A stretch of DNA of 64,000 nt from Eledone cirrhosa (Eukaryota), in assembly GCA_964016885.1 (NCBI GenBank), contig OZ024746.1, positions 100,626,001 through 100,690,000 of the forward strand. Reading direction: 5' to 3'. The notes under the pieces were generated by a model. It was not told the origin of the DNA. It worked only from the letters and a program-made list of their open reading frames with translations, and did no database searches. Positions 11,624-35,905 of the stretch are shown here, in pieces. A program made the position numbers and the translations under genes. Numbering within the stretch: position 1 is the stretch's first letter; every line of letters begins with the position of its first letter.

Positions 11624-12449
11624 CTCGCTGGCAGTATATACTAGTTCATTCAAAATAAATAATTTTACATTTCTCTATTTTATTTTGTTGATGCAAAAGA
11701 GATAATTAGATCTAGTTCATATATCTTTATGAACAAAATTCATTTTTTACAAGTGACAGATTATCTATTCTGTTAATCAAATTTAGTTGAGTATAATTTT
11801 AAATGTTCAGTTTTAAAATCTGTATCCATAGAAAAACTGTTGTATAAATATTAGGTTGCATTTTTATTTTAAAACACTACTCAGAGCCAATGTACATGTA
11901 AAATTTGTGAGTATAGAAAGTCTAAGTCTAATTAATTGGGAAAATCAAAACATATACAATATTAAAAACTTATTAAGAATCATGGGAATGTCAGAGATAA
12001 TTTAATAGACAATTGTTAACAAATTATTATTATGAATAAAGAGAAAAATGTTACGTTCTTATGTAAACCAAATGTATGAATTCTAAAGTTAATAATTATT
12101 TTATAACTATTTCTCATGCAAGGGTGTGTGTATATCATGTAAATACTGTTAGAAACATTATTAGGTAGAAGTGTAGCTAATGCACAGGACAATTAACTTT
12201 ATTAAGTTATTCAAAACATATTAATACAAACTGAATCGAAAATGACAGGTATATCAGATAATTACAGAAAAATAATAATAAATTATTGTTAATTTTAATT
12301 ATTAATATAGTTAATATAAAGATAACAATTTAACTTGGTTATGAGAGTTACATGAGTAGACCTCGAACACCTCCCACCACATCAAAAGAAGGGGTTGTAG
12401 GGGTGTCTAGAATGCTGTGAATCATCATCATCATCATCATCGTTTAACG

Positions 12450-13250
12450 TATCTGTCAATAAGTACAACAGTTACTCTCAGTAGGTGAGGCCTGGCTTCA
12501 GCAGTAGAGGATGGCACCAAATGTTTGAGTTACCAAATCAGAGACTGTCAGCATCTACACTACTGTGAGTAGGGAAAGCTTAATGGCAGAGAAAAAGTTT
12601 GCTTTGCAGGCTAGATATAGCAGATATTGAGTCTGAGGTCCATAGTTGGCTCAAGCACCTTGAGCCAAAGTTCAGATAGAACCACCTTGGTGGGGTGAAG
12701 TGCCATCTGAGGCAATTACTCTGACCACAGCTGAGATATCATGTTCAATGAATTTAGCATTTATGTGGTCACATAATTGCTTTGAGCCAATATCAGAGGC
12801 TTGCAGGTAACATAATCAAATACACTAAAATATTGTACTTAATTAGTACTGCTAGTGAGAGATCACTTTCATTGGCCATAGATATATGGAGACCAGAGCA
12901 AATGGAGTCCAAGGCCCTTTCCATTGAAAAGGTGAGGGCATCGGCTGCTGATACATGTGCTGCTTTTGGGATTTTCTGACGGATTTTACAGATTTGAGCA
13001 ATGTTTGTAAACAAGGCTTGAGCATCAAACAAGTTCATTGTTTTGTTTATGCCCTGTAAGTTACCGTGTGTGATTTGGCTAAGTCAGGCCAATCATATAT
13101 ATTTTCAACTTCTGCCCAAACCGAGACTTTCCTGCTACTTTTAATAAACTAATTCTCTTTGTGCTTTGACCGTGGTAAGGTAAATAACCATTTTGCTTTT
13201 GCTCCACAACCATTAACCAATATGTAACTCAGCAGTGTAACCATGGGCCT
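12450..13250 (-). mobile_element. Degraded non-LTR retrotransposon fragment, CRE-like
   Basis: Minus-strand peptides KIPKAAHVSAADAL, DISAVVRVIASD and SAIK.FP..S..ADSL resemble the pre-RT region of CRE-clade elements as recalled (RIPK..R..AA; GDV.GAVR...SD; AI.SFP.GSAGGPDGL). Many stops; boundaries approximate. Confidence 0.5.
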
Positions 13251-14230
13251 GGCTAACACCTCAGCCAGTGGACCGTACCTTCTGAAACCTTAATTTGTTT
13301 GTTTCATTTGTTTTGGCATGCAAGCTCAATCCAGCTCTTCTCACCTTAACCTTTGTTAATAAATTATGTAAAAACCTGTTACAACAAACTACATATTGTC
13401 ATTGATATTATTATTACATGGCATAATATTTACCACTAGAGGTGACTATCAAATGACTGCTATATTGGTGACCTCTCTTGATACATAAAACTTCAATACA
13501 AACTACAAACACAAATAATAACTATTATCATTATTTTATCTATTGCAACACTAGCATCTATATGATCAGCTGAAATTAAGGCAGCACCCTAACATGGCCA
13601 CAGATTGAAATCTGTAAAAGAATAAGTAAATTTTTACACCCACACGTGTCTTGGGTGTAATTGTAAATATTAACCAAATAATGTTAGGCTACATTTTTTG
13701 TTTTTACTTGATATGAATTGTAAGTATGGAAGGATATCTGTGACACGATCGAATTAGTAAATAAATGCTATATACCATACATATATTAGATAATTTGTTT
13801 TCCCTCTAGTACTTACATTCACACACATACACATAATTTTTGTGACATTTTGTGTGTCCAATTCCTCTTCTCCTCTCTTTCAATGTCTGTTTTTCCATAT
13901 CTTGCTCTCTATGACCAACCTTCATCAACAATGTTCCAGTTCTGACCATCTACCTTCTTTTAAGAAGAAGCTGCATCAATGACTATCCACTGTTTTTTTT
14001 ATCTGTAATCAAGACTATCCAGTAGAATTTCTTATGCCATAAAAGGCCCACCAATTCAGTGTATTAGTTTCTTAGCAACACTGGAGACACTTCTAATATA
14101 TTTATATAAGTAAAAATTATATTAAATTGTTAATTCAGTATTACACCTGTCACATTCTAAAGTGGGTGACCCATTTCAGTCAAACAAAGGCCTTGATTTG
14201 TGGATTTGCAAAAATGTAACAATATATTAG

Positions 14231-14322
14231 TTGACTTTGCCTTTCATCCTTACGGGGTCGATAAAATAAAGTACCAGTAATGCACTGAGTAATTTGCTGG
14301 CCTTGTGCCTAAAGTAGAAACA
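14231..14322 (+). mobile_element. 5'-truncated copy of the SINE with TSD
   Basis: Reverse complement of 2431-2520; flanked by AATATATTAG(TT) at 14221 and 14323. Confidence 0.85.
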
Positions 14323-14447
14323 AATATATTAGTTATTTATGTTTTCAATAATCCAACTTTCCTTTATTGCCCTCTTATTTTATTGTGTCTACTTTCTTTT
14401 ATTTTTTACTTTCAATGTCTATGAAATTGTAAATTTTAAATTTCCAG

Positions 14448-14573
14448 ATATAAATGAATGTAGCAATAGTACAACGAACAACTGTTCACAATTTGCTACA
14501 TGTCATAACTATGATGGTGGACACAACTGTAGCTGTGTTGCAGGATATATTGGAGATGGTTTCAATTGTAGAG
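14448..14573 (+). CDS. EGF_CA-type exon 1 (D)INECSNSTTNNCSQFATCHNYDGGHNCSCVAGYIGDGFNCR
   Basis: tttccag acceptor, AG|gttcgt donor, 126 bp, phase 1-1, six Cys, DINEC start. Confidence 0.9.
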
Positions 14574-15149
14574 GTTCGTATAAGAAATATATTAATGATA
14601 TATGAAACTTTCTGTATAATACAAGAGGACCAATATGTCCTTATTACTCCCACCATTTCCTCCATATCTACTATAGTATCCTCTACATCCTGATAACCCC
14701 TATAGCTAGCCTTGTTTTAATCATACCTTGTCTGTGCTGCAACCATGTAAGAAATGTGATTTCTGGCTCATTCATAACTAAATGCACCTTGTACACTCTG
14801 TAAAGTGGTTGAGATTAGGAGAAGCATCTAGCTTTATAAACCATGCCATAAAGGGTTGTGAGGACTTTTCATCAGCATCAGGGACAGGACAATGTCTGTA
14901 GTGCTGGTGCCACTATAAAATGCTCTCGGTAAGGTTGTTGAGATTAGAAAGAACATTGAGTCATAATAAAAAGAAAATATACCAAACAAAATATTGTGAT
15001 GTCTCTTCTGTTGTGTCAAGAATATGGCCACCTCCCTAGTACTGGGGCCATGATAAAATGTACCCAGTACACTCTAATAGGTTTGTTGTTAGGTAGGGCA
15101 TCCAGCTGTGGAAATAGCAATGATAACCTATGGAAAACACTCCTTCTCT

Positions 15150-15790
15150 CAAGAAAGCCTATGCAGGTTGCTTTCCGTGTATGTGGAGTTACACTGAAGC
15201 AGGGGGTGAAGTTCAAATATCTCAGGGCCATTTTCATGAGTTTTAGATGGGATGAGACAGAATTAAATAGAAAAATTGCAGGAGCTTCCTGCATTAATGT
15301 CTGAGTTGCAACACTCAGCCACTTAAAGAAGGGAATAGTTGCAAGAATCAAACTCACTAACTTCTAGTTTGTGTTATGTCAAAACTTACTTATGGTCATT
15401 AATCTTGATAATATGAGCAGCCAAAATGACATTCCTCGAAAGGGTGTTTGGGGTAATGTTACTTGATAAAGTTAATATCTCAGTGATCAGAGAGCCACAT
15501 CAGATAGAACTGCTACTCTTCCACATCGTGGGATAACAGCTCCTGTAACACAGGCATGTTGGTGAGAATGTCTAAGGAAAGAATAGCTGATTTTATAGGC
15601 AAAGTCAACTGTCAGGGAAGCTAGAGGCAGACTACAAGCAAGATGGTTGGATAACATCTATAAACCAGGTTGGTCTTGTTTATACATCCATATAGATCAA
15701 TTGGAGATGCTTGCTTCTGATAGGACTCTCATGAAGACCTGTCTGAAGACTCTATCTCCATCAGCCTTTCATGAATAAATGTGTGAAGAA
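15150..15790 (+). mobile_element. RTE-clade LINE 3' remnant in the intron (repeated in units 1-12)
   Basis: Decayed peptides VKFKYL, ELNRKIA.AS, LTYGH, AAKMTFLERVFGV.LLDKV...IRE...IE.LL..I match the RTE ORF C-terminus pattern. Confidence 0.7.
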
Positions 15791-15845
15791 GAAGTTACAT
15801 ATATAATATTCATACAAGATTGAGATCATACTTTTAAATTTCCAG

Positions 15846-15971
15846 ATATAAATGAATGTAGCAATAGTACAACGAACAACTGTTCACAATTTGCTACATG
15901 TCATAACTATGATGGTGGACACAACTGTAGCTGTGTTGCAGGATATATTGGAGATGGTTTCAATTGTAGAG
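15846..15971 (+). CDS. EGF exon copy 2
   Basis: Identical to copy 1, splice sites intact. Confidence 0.88.
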
Positions 15972-17244
15972 GTTCGTATAAGAAATATATTAATGATATA
16001 TGAAACTTTCTGTATAATACAAGAGGACCAATATGTCCTTATTACTCCCACCATTTCCTCCATATCTACTATAGTATCCTCTACATTTTGATAACCCCTA
16101 TAGCTAGCCTTGTTTTAATCATATCTTGTCTGTGCTGCACCCATGTAAGAAATGTGATTTCTGGCTCATTCATAACTAAATGCACCTTGTACACTCTGTA
16201 AAGTGGTTGTGATTAGGAGAAGCATCTAGCTTTATAAACCATGCCATAAAGGGTTGTGAGGACTTTTCATCAGCATCAGGGACAGGACAATGTCTGTAGT
16301 GCTGGTGCCACTATAAAATGCTCTCGGTAAGGTTGTTGAGATTAGAAAGAACATTGAGTCATAATAAAAAGAAAATATACCAAACAAAATATTGTGATGT
16401 CTCTTCTGTTGTGTCAAGAATATGGCCACCTCCCTAGTACTGGGGCCATGATAAAATGTACCCAGTACACTCTAATATGTTTGTTGTTAGGTAGGGCATC
16501 CAGCTGTGGAAATAGCAATGATAACCTATGGAAAACACTCCTTCTCTCAAGAAAGCCTATGTAGGTTGCTTTCCATGTATGTGGAGTTACACTGAAGCAG
16601 GGGGGTGAAGTTCAAATATCTCAGGGCCATTTTCATGAGTTTTAGATGGGATGAGACAGAATTAAATAGAAAAATTGCAGGAGCTTCCTGCATTAATGTC
16701 TGAGTTGCAACACTCAGCCACTTAAAGAAGGGAATAGTTGCAAGAATCAAACTCAATATCTTTTAGTTTGTGTTATGTCAAAACTTACCTATGGTCATTA
16801 ATCTTGATAATATGAGCAGCCAAAATGACATTCCTCGAAAGGGTCTTTGGGGTAATGTTACTTGATAAAGTTAATATCTCAGTGATCAGAGAGCCACATC
16901 AGATAGAACTGCTACTCTTCCACATCGAGGGATAACAGCTCCTGTAACACAGGCATGTTGGTGAGAATGTCTAAGGAAAGAATAGCAGATTTTATAGGCA
17001 AAGTCAACTGTCAGGGAAGCTAGAGGCAGACTACAAGCAAGATGGTTGGATAACATCTATAAACCAGGTTGGTCTTGTTTATACATCCATATAGATCAAT
17101 TGGAGATGCTTGCTTCTGATAGGACTCTCATGAAGACCTGTCTGAAGACTCTATCTCCATCAGCCTTTCATGAATAAATGTGTGAAGAAGAAGTTACATA
17201 TATAATATTCATACAAGATTGAGATCATACTTTTAAATTTCCAG

Positions 17245-17370
17245 ATATAAATGAATGTAGCAATAGTACAACGAACAACTGTTCACAATTTGCTACATGT
17301 CATAACTATGATGGTGGACACAACTGTAGCTGTGTTGCAGGATATATTGGAGATGGTTTCAATTGTAGAG
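17245..17370 (+). CDS. EGF exon copy 3
   Basis: Identical to copy 1. Confidence 0.88.
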
Positions 17371-18643
17371 GTTCGTATAAGAAATATATTAATGATATAT
17401 GAAACTTTCTGTATAATACAAGAGGACCAATATGTCCTTATTACTCCCACCATTTCCTCCATATCTACTATAGTATCCTCTACATTTTGATAACCCCTAT
17501 AGCTAGCCTTGTTTTAATCATATCTTGTCTGTGCTGCACCCATGTAAGAAATGTGATTTCTGGCTCATTCATAACTAAATGCACCTTGTACACTCTGTAA
17601 AGTGGTTGTGATTAGGAGAAGCATCTAGCTTTATAAACCATGCCATAAAGGGTTGTGAGGACTTTTCATCAGCATCAGGGACAGGACAATGTCTGTAGTG
17701 CTGGTGCCACTATAAAATGCTCTCGGTAAGGTTGTTGAGATTAGAAAGAACATTGAGTCATAATAAAAAGAAAATATACCAAACAAAATATTGTGATGTC
17801 TCTTCTGTTGTGTCAAGAATATGGCCACCTCCCTAGTACTGGGGCCATGATAAAATGTACCCAGTACACTCTAATATGTTTGTTGTTAGGTAGGGCATCC
17901 AGCTGTGGAAATAGCAATGATAACCTATGGAAAACACTCCTTCTCTCAAGAAAGCCTATGTAGGTTGCTTTCCATGTATGTGGAGTTACACTGAAGCAGG
18001 GGGGTGAAGTTCAAATATCTCAGGGCCATTTTCATGAGTTTTAGATGGGATGAGACAGAATTAAATAGAAAAATTGCAGGAGCTTCCTGCATTAATGTCT
18101 GAGTTGCAACACTCAGCCACTTAAAGAAGGGAATAGTTGCAAGAATCAAACTCAATATCTTTTAGTTTGTGTTATGTCAAAACTTACCTATGGTCATTAA
18201 TCTTGATAATATGAGCAGCCAAAATGACATTCCTCGAAAGGGTCTTTGGGGTAATGTTACTTGATAAAGTTAATATCTCAGTGATCAGAGAGCCACATCA
18301 GATAGAACTGCTACTCTTCCACATCGAGGGATAACAGCTCCTGTAACACAGGCATGTTGGTGAGAATGTCTAAGGAAAGAATAGCAGATTTTATAGGCAA
18401 AGTCAACTGTCAGGGAAGCTAGAGGCAGACTACAAGCAAGATGGTTGGATAACATCTATAAACCAGGTTGGTCTTGTTTATACATCCATATAGATCAATT
18501 GGAGATGCTTGCTTCTGATAGGACTCTCATGAAGACCTGTCTGAAGACTCTATCTCCATCAGCCTTTCATGAATAAATGTGTGAAGAAGAAGTTACATAT
18601 ATAATATTCATACAAGATTGAGATCATACTTTTAAATTTCCAG

Positions 18644-18769
18644 ATATAAATGAATGTAGCAATAGTACAACGAACAACTGTTCACAATTTGCTACATGTC
18701 ATAACTATGATGGTGGACACAACTGTAGCTGTGTTGCAGGATATATTGGAGATGGTTTCAATTGTAGAG
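18644..18769 (+). CDS. EGF exon copy 4
   Basis: Identical to copy 1. Confidence 0.88.
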
Positions 18770-20042
18770 GTTCGTATAAGAAATATATTAATGATATATG
18801 AAACTTTCTGTATAATACAAGAGGACCAATATGTCCTTATTACTCCCACCATTTCCTCCATATCTACTATAGTATCCTCTACATTTTGATAACCCCTATA
18901 GCTAGCCTTGTTTTAATCATATCTTGTCTGTGCTGCACCCATGTAAGAAATGTGATTTCTGGCTCATTCATAACTAAATGCACCTTGTACACTCTGTAAA
19001 GTGGTTGTGATTAGGAGAAGCATCTAGCTTTATAAACCATGCCATAAAGGGTTGTGAGGACTTTTCATCAGCATCAGGGACAGGACAATGTCTGTAGTGC
19101 TGGTGCCACTATAAAATGCTCTCGGTAAGGTTGTTGAGATTAGAAAGAACATTGAGTCATAATAAAAAGAAAATATACCAAACAAAATATTGTGATGTCT
19201 CTTCTGTTGTGTCAAGAATATGGCCACCTCCCTAGTACTGGGGCCATGATAAAATGTACCCAGTACACTCTAATATGTTTGTTGTTAGGTAGGGCATCCA
19301 GCTGTGGAAATAGCAATGATAACCTATGGAAAACACTCCTTCTCTCAAGAAAGCCTATGCAGGTTGCTTTCCATGTATGTGTAGTTACACTGAAGCAGGG
19401 GGTGAAGTTCAAATATCTCAGGGCCATTTTCATGAGTTTTAGATGGGATGAGACAGAATTAAATAGAAAAATTGCAGAAGCTTCCTGCATTAATGTCTGA
19501 GTTGCAACACTCAGCCACTTAAAGAAGGGAATAGTTGCAAGAATCAAACTCAATATCTTTTAGTTTGTGTTATGTCAAAACTTACCTATGGTCATTAATC
19601 TTGATAATATGAGCAGCCAAAATGACATTCCTCGAAAGGGTCTTTGGGGTAATGTTACTTGATAAAGTTAATATCTCAGTGATCAGAGAGCCACATCAGA
19701 TAGAACTGCTACTCTTCCACATCGTTGGGATAACAGCTCCTGTAACACAGGCATGTTGGTGAGAATGTCTAAGGAAAGAATAGCTGATTTTATAGGCAAA
19801 GTCAACTGTCAGGGAAGCTAGAGGTAGACTACAAGCAAGATGGTTGGATAACATCTATAAACCAGGTTGGTCTTGTTTATACATCCAGATAGATCAATTG
19901 GAGATGCTTGCTTCTGATAGGACTCTCATGAAGACCTGTCTGAAGACTCTATCTCCATCAGCCTTTCATGAATAAATGTGTGAAGAAGAAGTTACATATA
20001 TAATATTCATACAAGATTGAGATCATACTTTTAAATTTCCAG

Positions 20043-20168
20043 ATATAAATGAATGTAGCAATAGTACAACGAACAACTGTTCACAATTTGCTACATGTCA
20101 TAACTATGATGGTGGACACAACTGTAGCTGTGTTGCAGGATATATTGGAGATGGTTTCAATTGTAGAG
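20043..20168 (+). CDS. EGF exon copy 5
   Basis: Identical to copy 1. Confidence 0.88.
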
Positions 20169-21440
20169 GTTCGTATAAGAAATATATTAATGATATATGA
20201 AACTTTCTGTATAATACAAGAGGACCAATATGTCCTTATTACTCCCACCATTTCCTCCATATCTACTATAGTATCCTCTACATCCTGATAACCCCTATAG
20301 CTAGCCTTGTTTTAATCATACCTTGTCTGTGCTGCAACCATGTAAGAAATGTGATTTCTGGCTCATTCATAACTAAATGCACCTTGTACACTCTGTAAAG
20401 TGGTTGAGATTAGGAGAAGCATCTAGCTTTATAAACCATGCCATAAAGGGTTGTGAGGACTTTTCATCAGCATCAGGGACAGGACAATGTCTGTAGTGCT
20501 GGTGCCACTATAAAATGCTCTCGGTAAGGTTGTTGAGATTAGAAAGAACATTGAGTCATAATAAAAAGAAAATATACCAAACAAAATATTGTGATGTCTC
20601 TTCTGTTGTGTCAAGAATATGGCCACCTCCCTAGTACTGGGGCCATGATAAAATGTACCCAGTACACTCTAATATGTTTGTTGTTAGGTAGGGCATCCAG
20701 CTGTGGAAATAGCAATGATAACCTATGGAAAACACTCCTTCTCTCAAGAAAGCCTATGTAGGTTGCTTTCCATGTATTTGGAGTTACACTGAAGCAGGGG
20801 GTGAAGTTCAAATATCTCAGGGCCATTTTCATGAGTTTTTGATGGGATGCGACAGAATTAAATAGAAAAATTGCACGAGCTTCCTGCAGTAATGTCTGAG
20901 TTGCAACACTCAGCCACTTAAAGAAGGGAATAGTTGCAAGAATCAAACTCACTAACTTCTAGTTTGTGTTATGTCAAAACTTACTTATGGTCATTAATCT
21001 TGATAATATGAGCAGCCAAAATGACATTCCTCGAAAGGGTCTTTGGGGTAATGTTACTTGATAAAGTTAATATCTCAGTGATCAGAGAGCCACATCAGAT
21101 AGAACTGCTACTCTTCCACATCGAGGGATAACAGCTCCTGTAACACAGGCATGTTGGTGAGAATGTCTAAGGAAAGAATAGCAGATTTTATAGGCAAAGT
21201 CAACTGTCAGGGAAGCTAGAGGCAGACTACAAGCAAGATGGTTGGATAACATCTATAAACCAGGTTGGTCTTGTTTATACATCCAGATAGATCAATTGAA
21301 GATGCTTGCTTCTGATAGGACTCTCATGAAGACCTGTCTGAAGACTCTATCTCCATCAGCCTTTCATGAATAAATGTGTGAAGAAGAAGTTACATATATA
21401 ATATTCATACAAGATTGAGATCATACTTTTAAATTTCCAG

Positions 21441-21566
21441 ATATAAATGAATGTAGCAATAGTACAACGAACAACTGTTCACAATTTGCTACATGTCATA
21501 ACTATGATGGTGGACACAACTGTAGCTGTGTTGCAGGATATATTGGAGATGGTTTCAATTGTAGAG
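21441..21566 (+). CDS. EGF exon copy 6
   Basis: Identical to copy 1. Confidence 0.88.
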
Positions 21567-22839
21567 GTTCGTATAAGAAATATATTAATGATATATGAAA
21601 CTTTCTGTATAATACAAGAGGACCAATATGTCCTTATTACTCCCACCATTTCCTCCATATCTACTATAGTATCCTCTACATTTTGATAACCCCTATAGCT
21701 AGCCTTGTTTTAATCATATCTTGTCTGTGCTGCACCCATGTAAGAAATGTGATTTCTGGCTCATTCATAACTAAATGCACCTTGTACACTCTGTAAAGTG
21801 GTTGTGATTAGGAGAAGCATCTAGCTTTATAAACCATGCCATAAAGGGTTGTGAGGACTTTTCATCAGCATCAGGGACAGGACAATGTCTGTAGTGCTGG
21901 TGCCACTATAAAATGCTCTCGGTAAGGTTGTTGAGATTAGAAAGAACATTGAGTCATAATAAAAAGAAAATATACCAAACAAAATATTGTGATGTCTCTT
22001 CTGTTGTGTCAAGAATATGGCCACCTCCCTAGTACTGGGGCCATGATAAAATGTACCCAGTACACTCTAATATGTTTGTTGTTAGGTAGGGCATCCAGCT
22101 GTGGAAATAGCAATGATAACCTATGGAAAACACTCCTTCTCTCAAGAAAGCCTATGTAGGTTGCTTTCCATGTATGTGGAGTTACACTGAAGCAGGGGGG
22201 TGAAGTTCAAATATCTCAGGGCCATTTTCATGAGTTTTAGATGGGATGAGACAGAATTAAATAGAAAAATTGCAGGAGCTTCCTGCATTAATGTCTGAGT
22301 TGCAACACTCAGCCACTTAAAGAAGGGAATAGTTGCAAGAATCAAACTCAATATCTTTTAGTTTGTGTTATGTCAAAACTTACCTATGGTCATTAATCTT
22401 GATAATATGAGCAGCCAAAATGACATTCCTCGAAAGGGTCTTTGGGGTAATGTTACTTGATAAAGTTAATATCTCAGTGATCAGAGAGCCACATCAGATA
22501 GAACTGCTACTCTTCCACATCGAGGGATAACAGCTCCTGTAACACAGGCATGTTGGTGAGAATGTCTAAGGAAAGAATAGCTGATTTTATAGGCAAAGTC
22601 AACTGTCAGGGAAGTTAGAGGTAGACTACAAGCAAGATGGTTGGATAACATCTATAAACCAGGTTGGTCTTGTTTATACATCCAGATAGATCAATTGGAG
22701 ATGCTTGCTTCTGATAGGACTCTCATGAAGACCTGTCTGAAGACTCTATCTCCATCAGCCTTTCATGAATAAATGTGTGAAGAAGAAGTTACATATATAA
22801 TATTCATACAAGATTGAGATCATACTTTTAAATTTCCAG

Positions 22840-22965
22840 ATATAAATGAATGTAGCAATAGTACAACGAACAACTGTTCACAATTTGCTACATGTCATAA
22901 CTATGATGGTGGACACAACTGTAGCTGTGTTGCAGGATATATTGGAGATGGTTTCAATTGTAGAG
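22840..22965 (+). CDS. EGF exon copy 7
   Basis: Identical to copy 1. Confidence 0.88.
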
Positions 22966-24238
22966 GTTCGTATAAGAAATATATTAATGATATATGAAAC
23001 TTTCTGTATAATACAAGAGGACCAATATGTCCTTATTACTCCCACCATTTCCTCCATATCTACTATAGTATCCTCTACATTTTGATAACCCCTATAGCTA
23101 GCCTTGTTTTAATCATATCTTGTCTGTGCTGCACCCATGTAAGAAATGTGATTTCTGGCTCATTCATAACTAAATGCACCTTGTACACTCTGTAAAGTGG
23201 TTGTGATTAGGAGAAGCATCTAGCTTTATAAACCATGCCATAAAGGGTTGTGAGGACTTTTCATCAGCATCAGGGACAGGACAATGTCTGTAGTGCTGGT
23301 GCCACTATAAAATGCTCTCGGTAAGGTTGTTGAGATTAGAAAGAACATTGAGTCATAATAAAAAGAAAATATACCAAACAAAATATTGTGATGTCTCTTC
23401 TGTTGTGTCAAGAATATGGCCACCTCCCTAGTACTGGGGCCATGATAAAATGTACCCAGTACACTCTAATATGTTTGTTGTTAGGTAGGGCATCCAGCTG
23501 TGGAAATAGCAATGATAACCTATGGAAAACACTCCTTCTCTCAAGAAAGCCTATGTAGGTTGCTTTCCATGTATGTGGAGTTACACTGAAGCAGGGGGGT
23601 GAAGTTCAAATATCTCAGGGCCATTTTCATGAGTTTTAGATGGGATGAGACAGAATTAAATAGAAAAATTGCAGGAGCTTCCTGCATTAATGTCTGAGTT
23701 GCAACACTCAGCCACTTAAAGAAGGGAATAGTTGCAAGAATCAAACTCAATATCTTTTAGTTTGTGTTATGTCAAAACTTACCTATGGTCATTAATCTTG
23801 ATAATATGAGCAGCCAAAATGACATTCCTCGAAAGGGTCTTTGGGGTAATGTTACTTGATAAAGTTAATATCTCAGTGATCAGAGAGCCACATCAGATAG
23901 AACTGCTACTCTTCCACATCGAGGGATAACAGCTCCTGTAACACAGGCATGTTGGTGAGAATGTCTAAGGAAAGAATAGCAGATTTTATAGGCAAAGTCA
24001 ACTGTCAGGGAAGCTAGAGGCAGACTACAAGCAAGATGGTTGGATAACATCTATAAACCAGGTTGGTCTTGTTTATACATCCAGATAGATCAATTGGAGA
24101 TGCTTGCTTCTGATAGGACTCTCATGAAGACCTGTCTGAAGACTCTATCTCCATCAGCCTTTCATGAATAAATGTGTGAAGAAGAAGTTACATATATAAT
24201 ATTCATACAAGATTGAGATCATACTTTTAAATTTCCAG

Positions 24239-24364
24239 ATATAAATGAATGTAGCAATAGTACAACGAACAACTGTTCACAATTTGCTACATGTCATAAC
24301 TATGATGGTGGACACAACTGTAGCTGTGTTGCAGGATATATTGGAGATGGTTTTAATTGTAGAG
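24239..24364 (+). CDS. EGF exon copy 8
   Basis: One synonymous change (TTC>TTT, Phe). Confidence 0.88.
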
Positions 24365-25637
24365 GTTCGTATAAGAAATATATTAATGATATATGAAACT
24401 TTCTGTATAATACAACAGGACCAATATGTCCTTATTACTCCCACCATTTCCTCCATATCTACTATAGTATCCTCTACATTTTGATAACCCCTATAGCTAG
24501 CCTTGTTTTAATCATATCTTGTCTGTGCTGCACCCATGTAAGAAATGTGATTTCTGGCTCATTCATAACTAAATGCACCTTGTACACTCTGTAAAGTGGT
24601 TGTGATTAGGAGAAGCATCTAGCTTTATAAACCTTGCCATAAAGGGTTGTGAGGACTTTTCATCAGCATCAGGGACAGGACAATGTCTGTAGTGCTGGTG
24701 CCACTATAAAATGCTCTCGGTAAGGTTGTTGAGATTAGAAAGAACATTGAGTCATAATAAAAAGAAAATATACCAAACAAAATATTGTGATGTCTCTTCT
24801 GTTGTGTCAAGAATATGGCCACCTCCCTAGTACTGGGGCCATGATAAAATGTACCCAGTACACTCTAATATGTTTGTTGTTAGGTAGGGCATCCAGCTGT
24901 GGAAATAGCAATGATAACCTATGGAAAACACTCCTTCTCTCAAGAAAGCCTATGTAGGTTGCTTTCCATGTATGTGTAGTTACACTGAAGCAGGGGGTGA
25001 AGTTCAAATATCTCAGGGCCATTTTCATGAGTTTTAGATGGGATGAGACAGAATTAAATAGAAAAATTGCAGAAGCTTCCTGCATTAATGTCTGAGTTGC
25101 AACACTCAGCCACTTAAAGAAGGGAATAGTTGCAAGAATCAAACTCAATATCTTTTAGTTTGTGTTATGTCAAAACTTACCTATGGTCATTAATCTTGAT
25201 AATATGAGCAGCCAAAATGACATTCCTCGAAAGGGTCTTTGGGGTAATGTTACTTGATAAAGTTAATATCTCAGTGATCAGAGAGCCACATCAGATAGAA
25301 CTGCTACTCTTCCACATCGTTGGGATAACAGCTCCTGTAACACAGGCATGTTGGTGAGAATGTCTAAGGAAAGAATAGCTGATTTTATAGGCAAAGTCAA
25401 CTGTCAGGGAAGCTAGAGGTAGACTACAAGCAAGATGGTTGGATAACATCTATAAACCAGGTTGGTCTTGTTTATACATCCAGATAGATCAATTGGAGAT
25501 GCTTGCTTCTGATAGGACTCTCATGAAGACCTGTCTGAAGACTCTATCTCCATCAGCCTTTCATGAATAAATGTGTGAAGAAGAAGTTACATATATAATA
25601 TTCATACAAGATTGAGATCATACTTTTAAATTTCCAG

Positions 25638-25763
25638 ATATAAATGAATGTAGCAATAGTACAACGAACAACTGTTCACAATTTGCTACATGTCATAACT
25701 ATGATGGTGGACACAACTGTAGCTGTGTTGCAGGATATATTGGAGATGGTTTCAATTGTAGAG
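25638..25763 (+). CDS. EGF exon copy 9
   Basis: Identical to copy 1. Confidence 0.88.
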
Positions 25764-27035
25764 GTTCGTATAAGAAATATATTAATGATATATGAAACTT
25801 TCTGTATAATACAAGAGGACCAATATGTCCTTATTACTCCCACCATTTCCTCCATATCTACTATAGTATCCTCTACATCCTGATAACCCCTATAGCTAGC
25901 CTTGTTTTAATCATACCTTGTCTGTGCTGCAACCATGTAAGAAATGTGATTTCTGGCTCATTCATAACTAAATGCACCTTGTACACTCTGTAAAGTGGTT
26001 GAGATTAGGAGAAGCATCTAGCTTTATAAACCATGCCATAAAGGGTTGTGAGGACTTTTCATCAGCATCAGGGACAGGACAATGTCTGTAGTGCTGGTGC
26101 CACTATAAAATGCTCTCGGTAAGGTTGTTGAGATTAGAAAGAACATTGAGTCATAATAAAAAGAAAATATACCAAACAAAATATTGTGATGTCTCTTCTG
26201 TTGTGTCAAGAATATGGCCACCTCCCTAGTACTGGGGCCATGATAAAATGTACCCAGTACACTCTAATATGTTTGTTGTTAGGTAGGGCATCCAGCTGTG
26301 GAAATAGCAATGATAACCTATGGAAAACACTCCTTCTCTCAAGAAAGCCTATGTAGGTTGCTTTCCATGTATTTGGAGTTACACTGAAGCAGGGGGTGAA
26401 GTTCAAATATCTCAGGGCCATTTTCATGAGTTTTTGATGGGATGCGACAGAATTAAATAGAAAAATTGCACGAGCTTCCTGCAGTAATGTCTGAGTTGCA
26501 ACACTCAGCCACTTAAAGAAGGGAATAGTTGCATGAATCAAACTCACTAACTTCTAGTTTGTGTTATGTCAAAACTTACTTATGGTCATTAATCTTGATA
26601 ATATGAGCAGCCAAAATGACATTCCTCGAAAGGGTCTTTGGGGTAATGTTACTTGATAAAGTTAATATCTCAGTGATCAGAGAGCCACATCAGATAGAAC
26701 TGCTACTCTTCCACATCGAGGGATAACAGCTCCTGTAACACAGGCATGTTGGTGAGAATGTCTAAGGAAAGAATAGCAGATTTTATAGGCAAAGTCAACT
26801 GTCAGGGAAGCTAGAGGCAGACTACAAGCAAGATGGTTGGATAACATCTATAAACCAGGTTGGTCTTGTTTATACATCCAGATAGATCAATTGGAGATGC
26901 TTGCTTCTGATAGGACTCTCATGAAGACCTGTCTGAAGACTCTATCTCCATCAGCCTTTCATGAATAAATGTGTGAAGAAGAAGTTACATATATAATATT
27001 CATACAAGATTGAGATCATACTTTTAAATTTCCAG

Positions 27036-27161
27036 ATATAAATGAATGTAGCAATAGTACAACGAACAACTGTTCACAATTTGCTACATGTCATAACTAT
27101 GATGGTGGACACAACTGTAGCTGTGTTGCAGGATATATTGGAGATGGTTTCAATTGTAGAG
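27036..27161 (+). CDS. EGF exon copy 10
   Basis: Identical to copy 1. Confidence 0.88.
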
Positions 27162-28434
27162 GTTCGTATAAGAAATATATTAATGATATATGAAACTTTC
27201 TGTATAATACAAGAGGACCAATATGTCCTTATTACTCCCACCATTTCCTCCATATCTACTATAGTATCCTCTACATTTTGATAACCCCTATAGCTAGCCT
27301 TGTTTTAATCATATCTTGTCTGTGCTGCACCCATGTAAGAAATGTGATTTCTGGCTCATTCATAACTAAATGCACCTTGTACACTCTGTAAAGTGGTTGT
27401 GATTAGGAGAAGCATCTAGCTTTATAAACCATGCCATAAAGGGTTGTGAGGACTTTTCATCAGCATCAGGGACAGGACAATGTCTGTAGTGCTGGTGCCA
27501 CTATAAAATGCTCTCGGTAAGGTTGTTGAGATTAGAAAGAACATTGAGTCATAATAAAAAGAAAATATACCAAACAAAATATTGTGATGTCTCTTCTGTT
27601 GTGTCAAGAATATGGCCACCTCCCTAGTACTGGGGCCATGATAAAATGTACCCAGTACACTCTAATATGTTTGTTGTTAGGTAGGGCATCCAGCTGTGGA
27701 AATAGCAATGATAACCTATGGAAAACACTCCTTCTCTCAAGAAAGCCTATGTAGGTTGCTTTCCATGTATGTGGAGTTACACTGAAGCAGGGGGGTGAAG
27801 TTCAAATATCTCAGGGCCATTTTCATGAGTTTTAGATGGGATGAGACAGAATTAAATAGAAAAATTGCAGGAGCTTCCTGCATTAATGTCTGAGTTGCAA
27901 CACTCAGCCACTTAAAGAAGGGAATAGTTGCAAGAATCAAACTCAATATCTTTTAGTTTGTGTTATGTCAAAACTTACCTATGGTCATTAATCTTGATAA
28001 TATGAGCAGCCAAAATGACATTCCTCGAAAGGGTCTTTGGGGTAATGTTACTTGATAAAGTTAATATCTCAGTGATCAGAGAGCCACATCAGATAGAACT
28101 GCTACTCTTCCACATCGAGGGATAACAGCTCCTGTAACACAGGCATGTTGGTGAGAATGTCTAAGGAAAGAATAGCAGATTTTATAGGCAAAGTCAACTG
28201 TCAGGGAAGCTAGAGGCAGACTACAAGCAAGATGGTTGGATAACATCTATAAACCAGGTTGGTCTTGTTTATACATCCAGATAGATCAATTGGAGATGCT
28301 TGCTTCTGATAGGACTCTCATGAAGACCTGTCTGAAGACTCTATCTCCATCAGCCTTTCATGAATAAATGTGTGAAGAAGAAGTTACATATATAATATTC
28401 ATACAAGATTGAGATCATACTTTTAAATTTCCAG

Positions 28435-28560
28435 ATATAAATGAATGTAGCAATAGTACAACGAACAACTGTTCACAATTTGCTACATGTCATAACTATG
28501 ATGGTGGACACAACTGTAGCTGTGTTGCAGGATATATTGGAGATGGTTTCAATTGTAGAG
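28435..28560 (+). CDS. EGF exon copy 11
   Basis: Identical to copy 1. Confidence 0.88.
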
Positions 28561-29833
28561 GTTCGTATAAGAAATATATTAATGATATATGAAACTTTCT
28601 GTATAATACAAGAGGACCAATATGTCCTTATTACTCCCACCATTTCCTCCATATCTACTATAGTATCCTCTACATTTTGATAACCCCTATAGCTAGCCTT
28701 GTTTTAATCATATCTTGTCTGTGCTGCACCCATGTAAGAAATGTGATTTCTGGCTCATTCATAACTAAATGCACCTTGTACACTCTGTAAAGTGGTTGTG
28801 ATTAGGAGAAGCATCTAGCTTTATAAACCATGCCATAAAGGGTTGTGAGGACTTTTCATCAGCATCAGGGACAGGACAATGTCTGTAGTGCTGGTGCCAC
28901 TATAAAATGCTCTCGGTAAGGTTGTTGAGATTAGAAAGAACATTGAGTCATAATAAAAAGAAAATATACCAAACAAAATATTGTGATGTCTCTTCTGTTG
29001 TGTCAAGAATATGGCCACCTCCCTAGTACTGGGGCCATGATAAAATGTACCCAGTACACTCTAATATGTTTGTTGTTAGGTAGGGCATCCAGCTGTGGAA
29101 ATAGCAATGATAACCTATGGAAAACACTCCTTCTCTCAAGAAAGCCTATGCAGGTTGCTTTCCATGTATGTGTAGTTACACTGAAGCAGGGGGTGAAGTT
29201 CAAATATCTCAGGGCCATTTTCATGAGTTTTAGATGGGATGAGACAGAATTAAATAGAAAAATTGCAGAAGCTTCCTGCATTAATGTCTGAGTTGCAACA
29301 CTCAGCCACTTAAAGAAGGGAATAGTTGCAAGAATCAAACTCAATATCTTTTAGTTTGTGTTATGTCAAAACTTACCTATGGTCATTAATCTTGATAATA
29401 TGAGCAGCCAAAATGACATTCCTCGAAAGGGTCTTTGGGGTAATGTTACTTGATAAAGTTAATATCTCAGTGATCAGAGAGCCACATCAGATAGAACTGC
29501 TACTCTTCCACATCGTTGGGATAACAGCTCCTGTAACACAGGCATGTTGGTGAGAATGTCTAAGGAAAGAATAGCTGATTTTATAGGCAAAGTCAACTGT
29601 CAGGGAAGCTAGAGGTAGACTACAAGCAAGATGGTTGGATAACATCTATAAACCAGGTTGGTCTTGTTTATACATCCAGATAGATCAATTGGAGATGCTT
29701 GCTTCTGATAGGACTCTCATGAAGACCTGTCTGAAGACTCTATCTCCATCAGCCTTTCATGAATAAATGTGTGAAGAAGAAGTTACATATATAATATTCA
29801 TACAAGATTGAGATCATACTTTTAAATTTCCAG

Positions 29834-29959
29834 ATATAAATGAATGTAGCAATAGTACAACGAACAACTGTTCACAATTTGCTACATGTCATAACTATGA
29901 TGGTGGACACAACTGTAGCTGTGTTGCAGGATATATTGGAGATGGTTTCAATTGTAGAG
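29834..29959 (+). CDS. EGF exon copy 12
   Basis: Identical to copy 1. Confidence 0.88.
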
Positions 29960-31231
29960 GTTCGTATAAGAAATATATTAATGATATATGAAACTTTCTG
30001 TATAATACAAGAGGACCAATATGTCCTTATTACTCCCACCATTTCCTCCATATCTACTATAGTATCCTCTACATCCTGATAACCCCTATAGCTAGCCTTG
30101 TTTTAATCATACCTTGTCTGTGCTGCAACCATGTAAGAAATGTGATTTCTGGCTCATTCATAACTAAATGCACCTTGTACACTCTGTAAAGTGGTTGAGA
30201 TTAGGAGAAGCATCTAGCTTTATAAACCATGCCATAAAGGGTTGTGAGGACTTTTCATCAGCATCAGGGACAGGACAATGTCTGTAGTGCTGGTGCCACT
30301 ATAAAATGCTCTCGGTAAGGTTGTTGAGATTAGAAAGAACATTGAGTCATAATAAAAAGAAAATATACCAAACAAAATATTGTGATGTCTCTTCTGTTGT
30401 GTCAAGAATATGGCCACCTCCCTAGTACTGGGGCCATGATAAAATGTACCCAGTACACTCTAATATGTTTGTTGTTAGGTAGGGCATCCAGCTGTGGAAA
30501 TAGCAATGATAACCTATGGAAAACACTCCTTCTCTCAAGAAAGCCTATGTAGGTTGCTTTCCATGTATTTGGAGTTACACTGAAGCAGGGGGTGAAGTTC
30601 AAATATCTCAGGGCCATTTTCATGAGTTTTTGATGGGATGCGACAGAATTAAATAGAAAAATTGCACGAGCTTCCTGCAGTAATGTCTGAGTTGCAACAC
30701 TCAGCCACTTAAAGAAGGGAATAGTTGCAAGAATCAAACTCACTAACTTCTAGTTTGTGTTATGTCAAAACTTACTTATGGTTATTAATCTTGATAATAT
30801 GAGCAGCCAAAATGACATTCCTCGAAAGGGTCTTTGGGGTAATGTTACTTGATAAAGTTAATATCTCAGTGATCAGAGAGCCACATCAGATAGAACTGCT
30901 ACTCTTCCACATCGAGGGATAACAGCTCCTGTAACACAGGCATGTTGGTGAGAATGTCTAAGGAAAGAATAGCAGATTTTATAGGCAAAGTCAACTGTCA
31001 GGGAAGCTAGAGGTAGACTACAAGCAAGATGGTTGGATAACATCTATAAACCAGGTTGGTCTTGTTTATACATCCAGATAGATCAATTGGAGATGCTTGC
31101 TTCTGATAGGACTCTCATGAAGACCTGTCTGAAGACTCTATCTCCATCAGCCTTTCATGAATAAATGTGTGAAGAAGAAGTTACATATATAATATTCATA
31201 CAAGATTGAGATCATACTTTTAAATTTCCAG

Positions 31232-31357
31232 ATATAAATGAATGTAGCAATAGTACAACGAACAACTGTTCACAATTTGCTACATGTCATAACTATGATG
31301 GTGGACACAACTGTAGCTGTGTTGCAGGATATATTGGAGATGGTTTCAATTGTAGAG
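31232..31357 (+). CDS. EGF exon copy 13
   Basis: Identical to copy 1; lies in the final partial unit. Confidence 0.88.
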
Positions 31358-31675
31358 GTTCGTATAAGAAATATATTAATGATATATGAAACTTTCTGTA
31401 TAATACAAGAGGACCAATATGTCCTTATTACTCCCACCATTTCCTCCATATCTACTATAGTATCCTCTACATCCTGATAACCCCTATATCTAGCCTTGTT
31501 TTAATCATACCTTGTCTGTGCTGCAACCATGTAAGAAATGTGATTTCTGGCTCATTCATAACTAAATGCACCTTGTACACTCTGTAAAGTGGTTGAGATT
31601 AGGAGCAGCATCTAGCTTTAGAAACCATGCCATAAAGTGTTGTGAGGACTTTTCAGTAGCATCAGGAACAGGAAA

Positions 31676-34600
31676 ATGGGATCTATTTTGAGGAAACAGT
31701 AAATATTCTGTCAAAAAGTTTTAGCAAAAATGTTTTTTTATTTAACACCCATTGGCAGTGTATGAATCTGGTGAAAAAAGAGGATAAAGATTTTGTCAGG
31801 TATGCTTGGATTGTTAACAAGGAATGAGAATGATTTGAATTTAACAAAGTAACCCCAGACATGTTTAAATGCTTAATTTTCGTGCAAGGGTTAACTGCAA
31901 AGAAAGATGCAGAAACTTGTAACAGAATTCTGATAAAATTAGAGCAGAATCAGAACTTATCATTACAGGAAATATCAGAAGAATGCCAGAGAATTATAAA
32001 TCTTAGACATGATACAGAAAGAATCAAAGAGAGAGACTGCTCTCATAAAGACTCTGTGTGACCTAAAGTAAAAAACGAAAAACAAAAATTAATGTTTTGG
32101 ATGTGGCAGTTTACACTTCAGATACGATTGTCCTTTTAAAATCTTTAAGTGCTTCAAGTGGGGGAGAATAATACATAAAAATCACACTGTAACACAAAAG
32201 ATGAAAGAGGTTTAGCAGGAAAATTTATGTAAACAGGTTATTGGTGAAAAAAAAAAAATTAACAATGTGTATGTGAAATTGCAGTCAAATACATGTAGTG
32301 ACATTACTATAATCAGTGAAAATACTTGGAAAGCAACTGGGAAACCTACATTAAATAAAACCTCAAAGATTACATGTGGCATTTCGGGGAAGAAATTATT
32401 TTTTAAAGGCAAAATAGTAAGTAACATTACATTTCGTGGCAAAACCATAAAAGCTAAAGTTTATGTATTAAGAAATACAACAAACCTATTCTGTACTGAC
32501 TGGATGGAGCTGTTCAACTTATGGGATTTACCCATAAATATTTTATGTAAAAATATAATTTGGTCATCTGCCAGTTCAAACAAAGAGTCAGGTTATTAAA
32601 ATAAAAGAATAAAACAGTGTTTCCTAATGTTTTTCCGGATGAGTTAGGACGTTGTACTAAAATTAAAGTTAAATTTCAAGTGAAAGAAAATGTGACACCT
32701 GTATTTAAACCCAAACGTAATGCAATGTTTGCAGTGTTAGATCAAGTCAACAAAGAATTAGACTGGGAAAATTGACCACACAGAGTGGGCGGCTACAACA
32801 GTGTATGTAAAAACAAAAATTTAAAAAAAATTGTGTGTGCGCAGACTTTTCGACAGCACTAAATGAATGCTTAAACCCACACAACTACCCATTGCCAAGT
32901 CCAGAGGCAATTTTTTGTAAAATTAAATGGTGGAAAATTTTTCTCAAAATTTGACCTTTCTGCAGCTTACCTACAAATACAAGTTGAAGACAAATATACA
33001 AAGTTGTTGACAATAAACACACATAAAGGTTTGTACAAATTTAACCAACTTCCTTTTGGCATAAAAGTTACTCCGACTATATTCCTACAAGTTATAGATA
33101 CGATGCAGGCAGATAGTGATTTCGTGATTGCATACTTGGACGGCATATTAATTAAAAGTGAATCTCATGGTCAGCATGTCGAGCATGTCAAGTGTGTTTT
33201 TGATGCACAATGTAAGAGCTCCACTAAATAATTTGCAAAAAAAAGACGTAAATGGAATTGAACTAATAAGTGCCAGAAGGCGTTTGAAGAAATAAAAAAC
33301 ATATTAACATCAGACTTATCACTAACGCATTATGACCCCAAAATAGAAATCATATTGGTTTCAGATGCTAGTGAATATGGTATTGGAGCTGTTATTCTGC
33401 ACAAATATGATGTTGGTAGCATGAAAGCCATAGCTCATGCCTCACATTCTCTACTACCAGCAGAAAAAAATTAGTCAAATTGAAAAAGAGGCATTAGCAA
33501 TAATATTTGCAGTGTAAAAATTTCATAAATTCATTAACGGAAGTAGTTTTCGTTTACAGACTGATCACCATCCTTTGTTGTCAATTTATGGGTCAAAGAA
33601 GGGAATTCCCACCCATACAGCAAATAGATTACAATGCTGGGCACCATCTTACTAAATTATGATTTTCAGATGGAGTATCTACCATCCAAAAAATTAGGAC
33701 ATGTTGATGGTCTATCAAGATTGATACCTAAAAATAGTGAACTTTTTGAAGAATCAGTGATCGTGGCATTAAGAGCTGAAAATAAAATAAAAAGCATATT
33801 GTGTAATGTAGTACGGGAATTACCTTAGAAGAAATAAAATTAAAAGTAGAAGACAATTTTATTAAGAAAATGAAAAGATTATTGAGAGCAGAAAAAATAA
33901 ATAAAAATATGTGGTTTGCAGAACATAACCCGGATTCGAACTTGTACTTGATTTGTGACAATGTACTGGTGTATGTACAATGAGTAGTAATGCTGGTCAC
34001 ACTTCAAAAGTGAATATTAAGAATGAAATCTCTAATGTGAAGTTATGTATACTAGCCCAAAATGGACCAAGAGATTGAAAAGTTGGTAAAATCCTGCAGA
34101 GGTTGTGCTCTGGTAGCAAAATTGTCCACAACAAAATTTCAACCTTGGCTAAAGACGGATACTCCATGGTCCAGACTACATATAGATTTCGCAGGTCCAC
34201 TAAACAGATCATATTATCTTGTAGTGGTAGGTAGATTTACTAAGTGGCCTGAAATTTGTAAGTGTAAAAAAACAACCTCCTCAATTACAGTAAGTTTTTA
34301 TATGAATTGTTTGCAAGATATGGTATTCCTGATACCATAGTTTCTGATAATGGGACACAATTCATTGCGTATGAATTTAAAAGATTTTGTAAAATGTTCT
34401 TTATTGAACATGTGACCACTCCGCCGTATCATCCAAAGCAAACAATGAAATAGATGATTTAGCACTTCAACAATTCTTAAGAGTATACCATGTAATGCCT
34501 AATCCTAATACCCCTGGAGGCATGGCACTTGTGGAATTGATGTTCGCAAGGAAGATTAAGTCAGTGTTTAACAAACTGTTACCGGGTCAAAAAAGAAAAA

Positions 34601-35232
34601 TATCGGATAACAAAAATAATACGACAAAATTTTTCAAAATTGGCGACAAAGTGTTTTTTAGAATGTATAAAAATGGTAAAGAAATGTGGGAAGATGGCGT
34701 GATAAGTAAGCAAATTGGTAAAATGTATAAGATCAGAAATAGGAACCTAAGAGACCTATAAATCAGTTGTATAAGGTGAGAAATAGGAACCTAAGAGACC
34801 GATAAATCAGTTAAAAAGAAGGTTTGCTGGAGAAAGGGTCACGAGAAGAACCAATCGGAGTGTTATATGATATTTTTGATGTGTCAACCCCCAAAGAAAT
34901 TGTTGAACCTACACAGATGAGTATGAGCAAAAGGAAAGATATGGAATTTTAGATGTGGATCCAAAATGTAAAAAGTATTAAGTTCCAGACGGAGTTTAGT
35001 TCTCAAAAAGGGAGATGTTTTGAGGAAAACAACCCTTAAATAAACCCCCCCCCCTCCCCGTGACTAAAAGTGGACTAGGCAAAACTCTATAAATAAGAAC
35101 TGAAGTGAACTGTCATGGGAACTGTGTGTATGGAGTCTCGTTGTAGTCTCTCGTCTCTCGTTGGTTGTTCGGAATTACACCTGGTGAATACCTTGGGTTT
35201 TACCTCGTTTTGTGTGTCACACCGTTATAACA
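31676..35232 (+). mobile_element. Degraded, 5'-truncated Ty3/Gypsy element (K02A2.6/Mag-like) in intron
   Basis: Fragments FKCLIFVQGL, NTCSDITII (protease), DLSAAYLQ, LPFGIK, YLDGILI (YLDD mutated), [30 protein letters not shown]; many stops and frameshifts. Confidence 0.88.
35016..35232 (+). repeat. Putative 3' LTR of the degraded Gypsy element
   Basis: Polypurine tract AAAAAGGGAGA (35005-35015) followed by TGTT; TATAAATA near 35090; AACA at 35229-35232. Right end uncertain, possibly ~35319. Confidence 0.55.
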
Positions 35233-35676
35233 AGAGGTAAGTCTAAACCAGTATACTTTAAAGTTATTGGAGTTAAGCTACCTTACTAATTATCTCACCT
35301 CTTTAGATGGACATCAACAAATCAAACCACTATCACAAATTAATAGTTGATGTTTGTTTTTCAGAAAACTAAATATTTTTCAGTAATTCTTTTTGTTTTG
35401 ATCATAGGTTTTTGTTATATTGCAGCAGAGCATGTTTCAGTAAAATACCCAAATTTATAATGAACCTGAATATAATTTAGTTTCATGATCTCATTTAATA
35501 GTAATACTGGCTAAGAATGAAATATGTTTCTATTACATTTATTTAATGTGTATTATAACCACCCAATCTAACTGGAGGTTTTCAATAAATATGCTAATTC
35601 TGTATTGCAAATTTTTGTGTATTTATAAAAGATTTTGTTTAAATCTGACTAAGAGTATTTTTTTATCAATTTCTAG

Positions 35677-35802
35677 ATATAAATGAGTGTAAAATTGACT
35701 CACAGAATAATTGTTCTAAATTCGCAACATGTAACAACTATGATGGTGGGTACAACTGTATCTGCAAACATGGATATAAAGGAGACGGTGTCATTTGTAA
35801 AG
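35677..35802 (+). CDS. Diverged EGF_CA exon 14 (D)INECKIDSQNNCSKFATCNNYDGGYNCICKHGYKGDGVICK
   Basis: tttctag acceptor, AG|gtttgt donor, 126 bp, phase 1-1; full C-x-N-x4-Y-x-C-x-C consensus. Not in the ORF track. Confidence 0.9.
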
Positions 35803-35905
35803 GTTTGTATTATTTTAATAACACTTACATTTCATAAATAGAAGATAGGAAAATATTTTTTCACATTTTCCATCTATTAAGGGTTTGCCTAGTTTTCCCT
35901 TTAAC

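Follow-up and report, generated by a model that had tools for sequence, protein, structure and literature searches.

An array of 13 protein-identical EGF exons in a mucin-like membrane protein gene of the octopod Eledone cirrhosa: a candidate N-glycosylated stalk

A tandem array in which a 126-bp EGF exon occurs 13 times was found in a 64,000-nucleotide stretch of the Eledone cirrhosa genome (the window: assembly GCA_964016885.1, contig OZ024746.1, here C6, forward strand). The whole window lies within a gene that is assigned, by sequence and homology, to an octopod MUC4-like membrane 'mucin-like protein'. The array is genuine and not an assembly artefact; the symmetric exon, the tandem amplification, the in-frame joining, the domain order and the N-glycosylation sequons were directly seen. 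The array is probably, at a confidence a little above even, to be read as 13 EGF exons of identical protein sequence, spliced one to the next, that form a likely N-glycosylated stalk, which would lengthen a skin-mucus glycoprotein in place of an O-glycosylated mucin repeat. Coordinates are collected in Table 1.

Exon copies and repeat units

All copies (13/13) of the 126-bp exon are in phase 1/1, preceded by AG and followed by GT, and have a 41-residue internal peptide in common; twelve are identical in DNA and copy 8 alone deviates (C>T, exon position 116, synonymous). The exon starts are 1,398-1,399 bp apart. Each unit begins 14 bp 5' of its exon and consists of one symmetric phase-1 exon and about 1.27 kb of intron. 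Within that intron, unit positions of about 580-680 hold a short interspersed piece and those of about 711-1359 the decayed fragment of a dispersed repeat, whose scattered copies match it at 66-72%. The array is followed by a diverged EGF exon (exon 14), identical to the array exon at 26/41 residues and 92/126 bases (15 differing residues); its flanking intron can still be aligned to the intron of copy 1. The original prediction, made from the letters of the window, of 13 protein-identical exons and a diverged 14th at 35677 was confirmed in every part (AG/GT sites intact, one synonymous difference).

Both peptides score above the Pfam cut-offs for EGF_CA and EGF_3 (array module: EGF_CA 31.3 bits, cut-off 27), and the array module has the six cysteines, the D/N-x-D/N-E/Q start and the one-residue linker of calcium-binding EGF (cbEGF) modules. 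Of 50 candidates from the 3.0-Gb genome that were scored (21 matches), none was a further copy of the array peptide at more than 63% identity. A continuation of the unit beyond the retroelement that follows the array was searched for and not found.

Between units, 33 columns are variable, 1 in 126 exon bases and 32 in 1,272 intron bases. Three unit subtypes were distinguished: A (units 1, 5, 9, 12), B (2, 3, 6, 7, 10) and C (4, 8, 11), in the order ABBC ABBC ABC A A' along the array. Comparison of full units gave three identical pairs and a mean pairwise difference of 0.87%, in agreement with the very recent or homogenised expansion that had been predicted. Mean unit-to-unit distances are lowest at lag 4 (7.2) and lag 7 (8.4). 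The subtype and lag pattern is as expected from unequal crossing over, by which the array may have grown in single units first and then in blocks of 3-4 units.

Copy number in DNA

DNA run X1 may come from the assembled animal and is thus informative on the assembly, not on the population at large. The three array contigs of this run had depths of 119.1, 103.8 and 123.1; four adjoining single-copy contigs had 9.45-10.8. Mean k-mer multiplicities of 11.6, 9.8 and 11.4 were predicted from the assembly for the three contig paths, and division gave 10.3, 10.6 and 10.8 per copy, which equals the depth of the neighbouring single-copy DNA and fits about 13 copies. At 16/16 positions checked (taken from 20 rows of single deep array contigs, among the 40 of 93 difference rows listed), run X1 agreed with the base that most of the 12 full units carry. 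Two runs of restriction-site-associated DNA (X5 and X6; reduced-representation, other samples) gave only dispersed-repeat matches, the locus being uncovered.

That an assembler expanded one or two copies into the array is extremely improbable: array depth is about 10-12 times that of the neighbouring single-copy DNA and matches the predicted multiplicities, and the variable columns sort into subtypes with the lowest distances at lags 4 and 7. What speaks for such an artefact is the possible identity of the sequenced and the assembled animal, together with the roughness of contig depth.

Joining of the copies in RNA

Run X4 (other sample of the same study, kind off record) was judged to be RNA because GT..AG joints were present and introns were without cover; the unique intron of the array unit was not covered. 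A contig of 156 letters (126 + 30; depth 171.2) runs from the array exon end into the exon start, continuing past the exon end with the exon's first ten letters; its length denotes a closed loop if the words are 31 long. The loop is cut exactly at the first base at which exon 14 departs from the array exon, and the contig downstream of it begins with the expected overlap. Three downstream host exons were seen spliced in one 4,220-letter contig (depth 36, GT..AG joints, zero differing letters), and its 392 letters 5' of exon 17 are made up of exon 16 (123), exon 15 (123), a 126-base exon and 20 array-exon letters; by this arithmetic the loop exits via exon 14 into the rest of the mRNA.

DNA depth and the exon-to-exon contig thus agree with the in-frame exon amplification that had been proposed. 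The join of exon end to exon start which the original prediction named is present in the 156-letter contig, spliced joins between the exons are not missing, and the DNA depths fit about 13 copies, not 1-2.

Host gene

The host model has 40 coding exons and 1,793 open codons up to the transmembrane helix, in the order signal peptide, EGF array, NIDO, AMOP-like, VWD-like, EGF, SEA-like, EGF, transmembrane; signal peptide, EGF domains and the single transmembrane helix were assigned by sequence and homology. The protein family was found by a HMMER search, word-based protein searches giving only the Octopus vulgaris model or nothing. The O. vulgaris model (CAI9725059.1) was mapped exon by exon onto the DNA downstream of the array, and the host model was 58.9% identical over 1,230 columns to O. 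bimaculoides XP_052824549.1, the signal peptide of which matches the exon at C6:100602850, previously one of 13 ab initio candidates. It had been held that the host could not be identified from the window; it was named through these two orthologues and the flanking exons.

The NIDO exon was recognised above the cut-off (PF06119, E 4.4e-11); it had no match in PDB. AMOP (PF03782) was faint (E 0.21 on one exon), with a cysteine pattern collinear with that of relatives, which Pfam likewise leaves uncalled as AMOP. VWD gave no Pfam match on the exon or its orthologue, is collinear with the VWD of an Owenia protein and has an Atlas lead of 0.81. The SEA-like domain was faint as well (E 0.047) and contains RTKR, the one such motif in the host model, common to the orthologue. 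XP_052824549.1 is collinear with the annelid (Owenia) protein CAH1774025.1, a NIDO-VWD-C8-SEA protein (29% over 1,297 columns).

The model carries 71 N-glycan sequons, 39 of them in the array (three per copy). A tandem-repeat region rich in Pro/Thr/Ser (PTS) was absent from the host model and the orthologues, and among the frames listed no PTS-rich long frame was present in 214 kb upstream. GDPH, the putative MUC4 autocleavage site (PMC8660890), is also absent, LDPL standing in its place in the host and in XP_052824549.1. A cytoplasmic-tail exon was not found; 545 letters of the RNA contig are left for tail and 3' untranslated region. For the exon at C6:100764484 the donor at its end is doubtful and probably GC.

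MUC4 and the invertebrate 'mucin-like proteins' (compared here: XP_052824549.1, CAI9725059.1 and proteins of Owenia, Patella, Dreissena and Ptychodera) have in common with the host the order NIDO, AMOP-like, VWD-like, EGF, transmembrane and a tandem-repeat region N-terminal to NIDO (PMC8660890, PMC3748352). Unlike MUC4, the host lacks a PTS region, has LDPL for GDPH (as does O. bimaculoides) and a SEA-like domain with RTKR, and repeats whole exons. Judged by its sequence, it is akin to MUC4-type membrane mucins but without two membership features, and belongs to the invertebrate 'mucin-like protein' group.

Other identities were rejected. The fibrillin-, Notch- or adhesion-GPCR-like setting of the original prediction gave way to the NIDO/AMOP/VWD mucin-4-like membrane protein: TB, LNR/ankyrin and GAIN-7TM domains were all absent from Pfam scans of the orthologues. 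Octovafibrin was set aside, as NIDO and a transmembrane segment do not occur in the available part of its description (PMC10336842). A gene cluster at C8:46.0 Mb, tried as host or as source of the array, is a separate paralogue with duplicated EGFs behind VWD.

Orthologues and occurrence in skin mucus

In CAI9725059.1, 12 modules stand ahead of the exon-14 orthologue. They are of two types, one with eight members (six of them identical) and one with four. The array peptide has only 23-27/42 residues in common with modules of this protein. XP_052824549.1, whose own genome assembly may collapse repeats, has 2 modules at the array position. In a mostly unresolved module tree the array fell outside the O. 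vulgaris groups A and B (92/96 and 91/77), in an open fork. Amplification as the cause of sequon enrichment was ruled out, since unamplified O. bimaculoides modules carry sequons too.

Residues 1-93 of CAI9725059.1 are a 7-residue repeat, a satellite-like N-terminus that illustrates how such genes are mis-modelled. The same model is without the LDPL exon and one EGF exon present in the O. bimaculoides model, and its name is misleading.

The O. vulgaris orthologue, under accession A0A7E6EVN8, is mentioned 38 times in the available part of the O. vulgaris skin-mucus proteome (PMC10138644, Table S1), with at least 8 peptide-spectrum rows and 7 distinct peptides. Compared by eye, six of these match CAI9725059.1 exactly and the seventh matches XP_052824549.1; all seven map N-terminal to the RTKR site.

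Proposed role and alternatives

The stalk may be pictured as follows. Calcium-stiffened modules with one-residue linkers would form a rod, roughly 35-40 nm long for 13 copies as judged from cbEGF rods, on which dense N-glycans may take the role of mucin O-glycans. Furin-type cleavage at RTKR, rather than GDPH autoproteolysis, would shed the protein into mucus. With incomplete inclusion of the copies, stalk length might be set by the allele together with splicing.

A number of observations weigh against this reading. Contig depth is a rough measure and not itself a copy number; eight single-copy contigs 50 kb off have depths of 4.9-7.9, which would raise the copy estimate to 15-20, not lower it. 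Exon 14 is without cover in run X4 although the arithmetic requires it; a filter may have dropped the record. Inclusion of every copy at even coverage should give an RNA depth ratio of about 12.5; the ratio found is 4.8. In the cbEGF consensus an aromatic Tyr/Phe follows the hydroxylated D/N; the array module has His at this position and exon 14 has Tyr. (His is also present there in NELL1/2 modules.) A signal of selection was not detectable in the array, the difference between exon and intron variability being within chance (Poisson p 0.18, Fisher p 0.36). The host introns contain several non-coding satellites of huge size (46 bp x768, 56 bp x246, 27 bp x1721). The module counts of O. vulgaris and O. 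bimaculoides are those of gene models, and the unamplified N-terminal modules of the latter already have 3-4 sequons. Among the listed rows of the available part of the mucus table, five EGF-repeat motifs were not found; glycosylated peptides would escape such a proteomic search.

The depth ratio suggests only about 5 copies per transcript and falls short of the upper figure of 546 aa that had been predicted; possible causes are loss of 5' coverage, the skipping of copies and an allele with fewer of them. Copies 2-13 retain only 14 native acceptor bases (pyrimidine share 0.52, the lowest of 27 exons listed, tied with one other) and have a GTTCGT donor; these splice sites appear to be among the weakest in the gene, so that skipping is plausible. 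In the extreme case most copies would be skipped, or the exon-to-exon join would stem from circular (back-spliced) RNA, and the protein would have few extra modules. Low depth and weak-looking sites favour this case, as do the inability of a loop in a contig graph to separate linear from circular RNA and the absence of a visible entry from the signal exon. It is nonetheless quite improbable, since the cut of the loop where exon 14 first differs and the expected overlap of the next contig indicate that the loop leads on into the mRNA, and the low ratio could come from lost 5' coverage.

The main rival of the stalk is neutral runaway: a macrosatellite arising among satellite-prone introns and tolerated because its exon is symmetric, the extra modules having no useful role. 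The protein identity of the copies is no sign of selection, exon conservation not being above that of the intron. The three giant satellites in other introns indicate that tandem runaway is common in the host gene; the array unit itself ends in a dispersed-repeat fragment, and the O. bimaculoides model copes with 2 extra modules. Against this stands the apparently independent amplification of different exons in O. vulgaris, at the same position and with much the same outcome (12 modules there, 13 here). All 13 copies are also free of frameshifts, stops and lost splice sites, a point which recency alone can account for. On balance a neutral passenger is considered rather unlikely.

By analogy with abalone VERL and sea-urchin EBR1, in which concerted evolution spreads new specificity along a repeat array, the identical species-specific modules might bind a partner (microbe, parasite, gamete) with avidity. 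The modules are homogeneous within a species and only about 60% identical between species, the array is distal, and exon 14 differs from it at 15 residues, all as multivalent recognition would have it; but three sequons per 42 residues would probably mask much of the surface, the orthologue was found in skin mucus, and both a partner and expression in gametes are putative. This role is regarded as improbable, and the N-glycosylated stalk is preferred.

Paralogues

Two paralogues were found in the genome, at C8:46.0 Mb and C6:95.9 Mb. The EGF exons of the former end, behind VWD, in an alternating two-exon duplication (4 + 3 diverged copies). The latter, 4.7 Mb away, has NIDO, AMOP-like, VWD (GDPH) and EGF exons from 95910931 onward and no EGF exon upstream (N-terminal) of NIDO. 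Ahead of its NIDO exon, at a distance of 9.6 kb, ends a stop-free frame of 42,948 codons, which has Met and a hydrophobic segment close to its start and a phase-1 GTAAG donor at its end. Of its tandem repeats scoring at least 200, 91/91 have periods divisible by three, and its 24,011 non-repeat codons contain 0 stops, where the two remaining forward frames have 2,245 and 2,451. The frame is a candidate single-exon mucin stalk. Were it expressed, its product would exceed titin in length and come near PKZILLA-1, which has 45,212 aa (bioRxiv 10.1101/2024.01.29.577497). No description of the giant frame was found in the literature searched.

Comparison of the paralogues indicates that the slot before NIDO is filled by mucin repeat in one and by EGF modules in the host. 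A wider proposal is possible but doubtful: octopods may, in a membrane protein of skin mucus, have swapped the mucin repeat for an exon macrosatellite, rebuilt in each lineage from a different EGF exon to a similar length, with an N-glycan brush tuned by allele copy number and by skipping of copies whose acceptors were weakened by duplication; the single 129-kb mucin exon of the paralogue would be a second solution in the same genome.

Relation to known repeats

The closest likeness is to LPA KIV-2 (also DMBT1 and NEB), where an intron-containing coding unit with one disulfide domain is repeated in tandem (PMC11201333, PMC7613587, PMC11462820). KIV-2, too, has near-identical subtypes, set apart by changes that are synonymous or intronic, and a diverged paralogue of the domain at its flank. 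As in KIV-2, the array consists of near-identical exon-plus-intron tandem units, the copies of which are spliced in frame into mRNA. The LPA unit is about 5.5 kb long with two exons, in a secreted protein with about 40 alleles, whereas the array unit has 1.4 kb and one exon encoding an EGF module of a membrane protein.

In SmPoMuc of Schistosoma mansoni, likewise an invertebrate mucin gene, an exon lies in a genomic repeat of roughly 1 kb under concerted evolution, with up to about 20 copies and a transcript repeat number unlike the genomic number (PMC2576457). Its exon has 27 bp and encodes a 9-residue repeat in a multigene family; the array belongs to one gene and encodes a folded EGF module of 42 residues.

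Long EGF runs also occur in Dumpy, tenascin and octovafibrin (PMC2930355, PMC2267704, PMC10336842, PMC12723725). Those of tenascin are homogenised within a gene, as in the array (PMC2267704); the homogenised repeat of Dumpy lies, unlike the array, inside one large exon. Octovafibrin, with 29 EGF, bears load in the egg threads of octopus; it differs from the host in being secreted and capped by a lectin, and it does not bind calcium.

No description of the array was found in the literature searched (subscription journals being mostly outside coverage). The kind of repeat is already known from LPA and SmPoMuc, and the surprise is therefore moderate. The array is a compact invertebrate case in which tandem amplification of a whole exon sets protein length; evidence from DNA depth and an RNA junction is available, and the host gene is known. 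Two questions follow. One is whether selection acts on the stalk length of such a mucosal glycoprotein, two species having 12 and 13 modules that stem from different exons; the other is whether splicing takes in every one of a set of identical tandem exons or counts them.

Features of the window and related loci

Table 1. Positions of the array, the host gene, neighbouring repeats and paralogues (window coordinates unless C6 or C8 is given).
Feature	Position	Strand	Description
Tandem array	14434..31678	+	period 1399 (unit 1,398-1,399 bp), 12.3 units, 99%; Tandem Repeats Finder
Array exon copy 1	14448..14573	+	126 bp, phase 1/1, EGF_CA; sole copy with native upstream intron
Array exon copies 2-13	15846..31357	+	acceptor: 14 native bases after unit-end sequence
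Starts of copies 2-13	15846, 17245, 18644, 20043, 21441, 22840, 24239, 25638, 27036, 28435, 29834, 31232	+	
Truncated last unit	31358..31678	+	ends abruptly in retroelement
Repeat pieces, intron of unit 1	15010..15795	.	coordinates for unit 1; same pieces in each unit's intron
Exon 14, diverged EGF_CA exon	35677..35802	+	AG/GT; positional orthologue of O. vulgaris module 590-631 and O. bimaculoides module 3
Window within host gene	1..64000 (C6:100626001-100690000)	+	whole window inside
Signal-peptide exon	C6:100602850-100602937	+	88 bp, phase-1 donor; upstream of window
25 downstream coding exons	C6:100701181-100842000	+	2 EGF, NIDO, AMOP-like, VWD-like, EGF, SEA-like, EGF, transmembrane
Decayed retroelement, long terminal repeat (LTR) type	31679..35230	+	intron before exon 14; RNase H match; single terminal repeat near 35017-35230
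46-bp satellite	35923..64000	.	x768; fills next intron, extends about 8 kb past window
52-bp satellite	9071-10146		same family as 46-bp satellite
56-bp satellite x246	C6:100737115-100750752		downstream of window, host intron
27-bp satellite x1721	C6:100792846-100839107		downstream of window, host intron
Helitron fragment	1-2080	-	37-kb first intron
LTR-type retroelement	4152-7680	+	794-codon pol-like frame; 37-kb first intron
Assembly gap, 200 N	C6:100547889-100548088		upstream of signal exon, outside coding span
Paralogue C8	C8:45977000-46022000	-	NIDO, AMOP-like, VWD with GDPH, then many EGF exons
Paralogue C6, giant frame	C6:95772487-95901330	+	stop-free 42,948 codons, 128.8 kb, 35% Pro/Thr/Ser, no N

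The 52-bp and 46-bp satellites flank the array in opposite orientation; the 27-bp satellite sits in an intron that divides an EGF domain between two exons.

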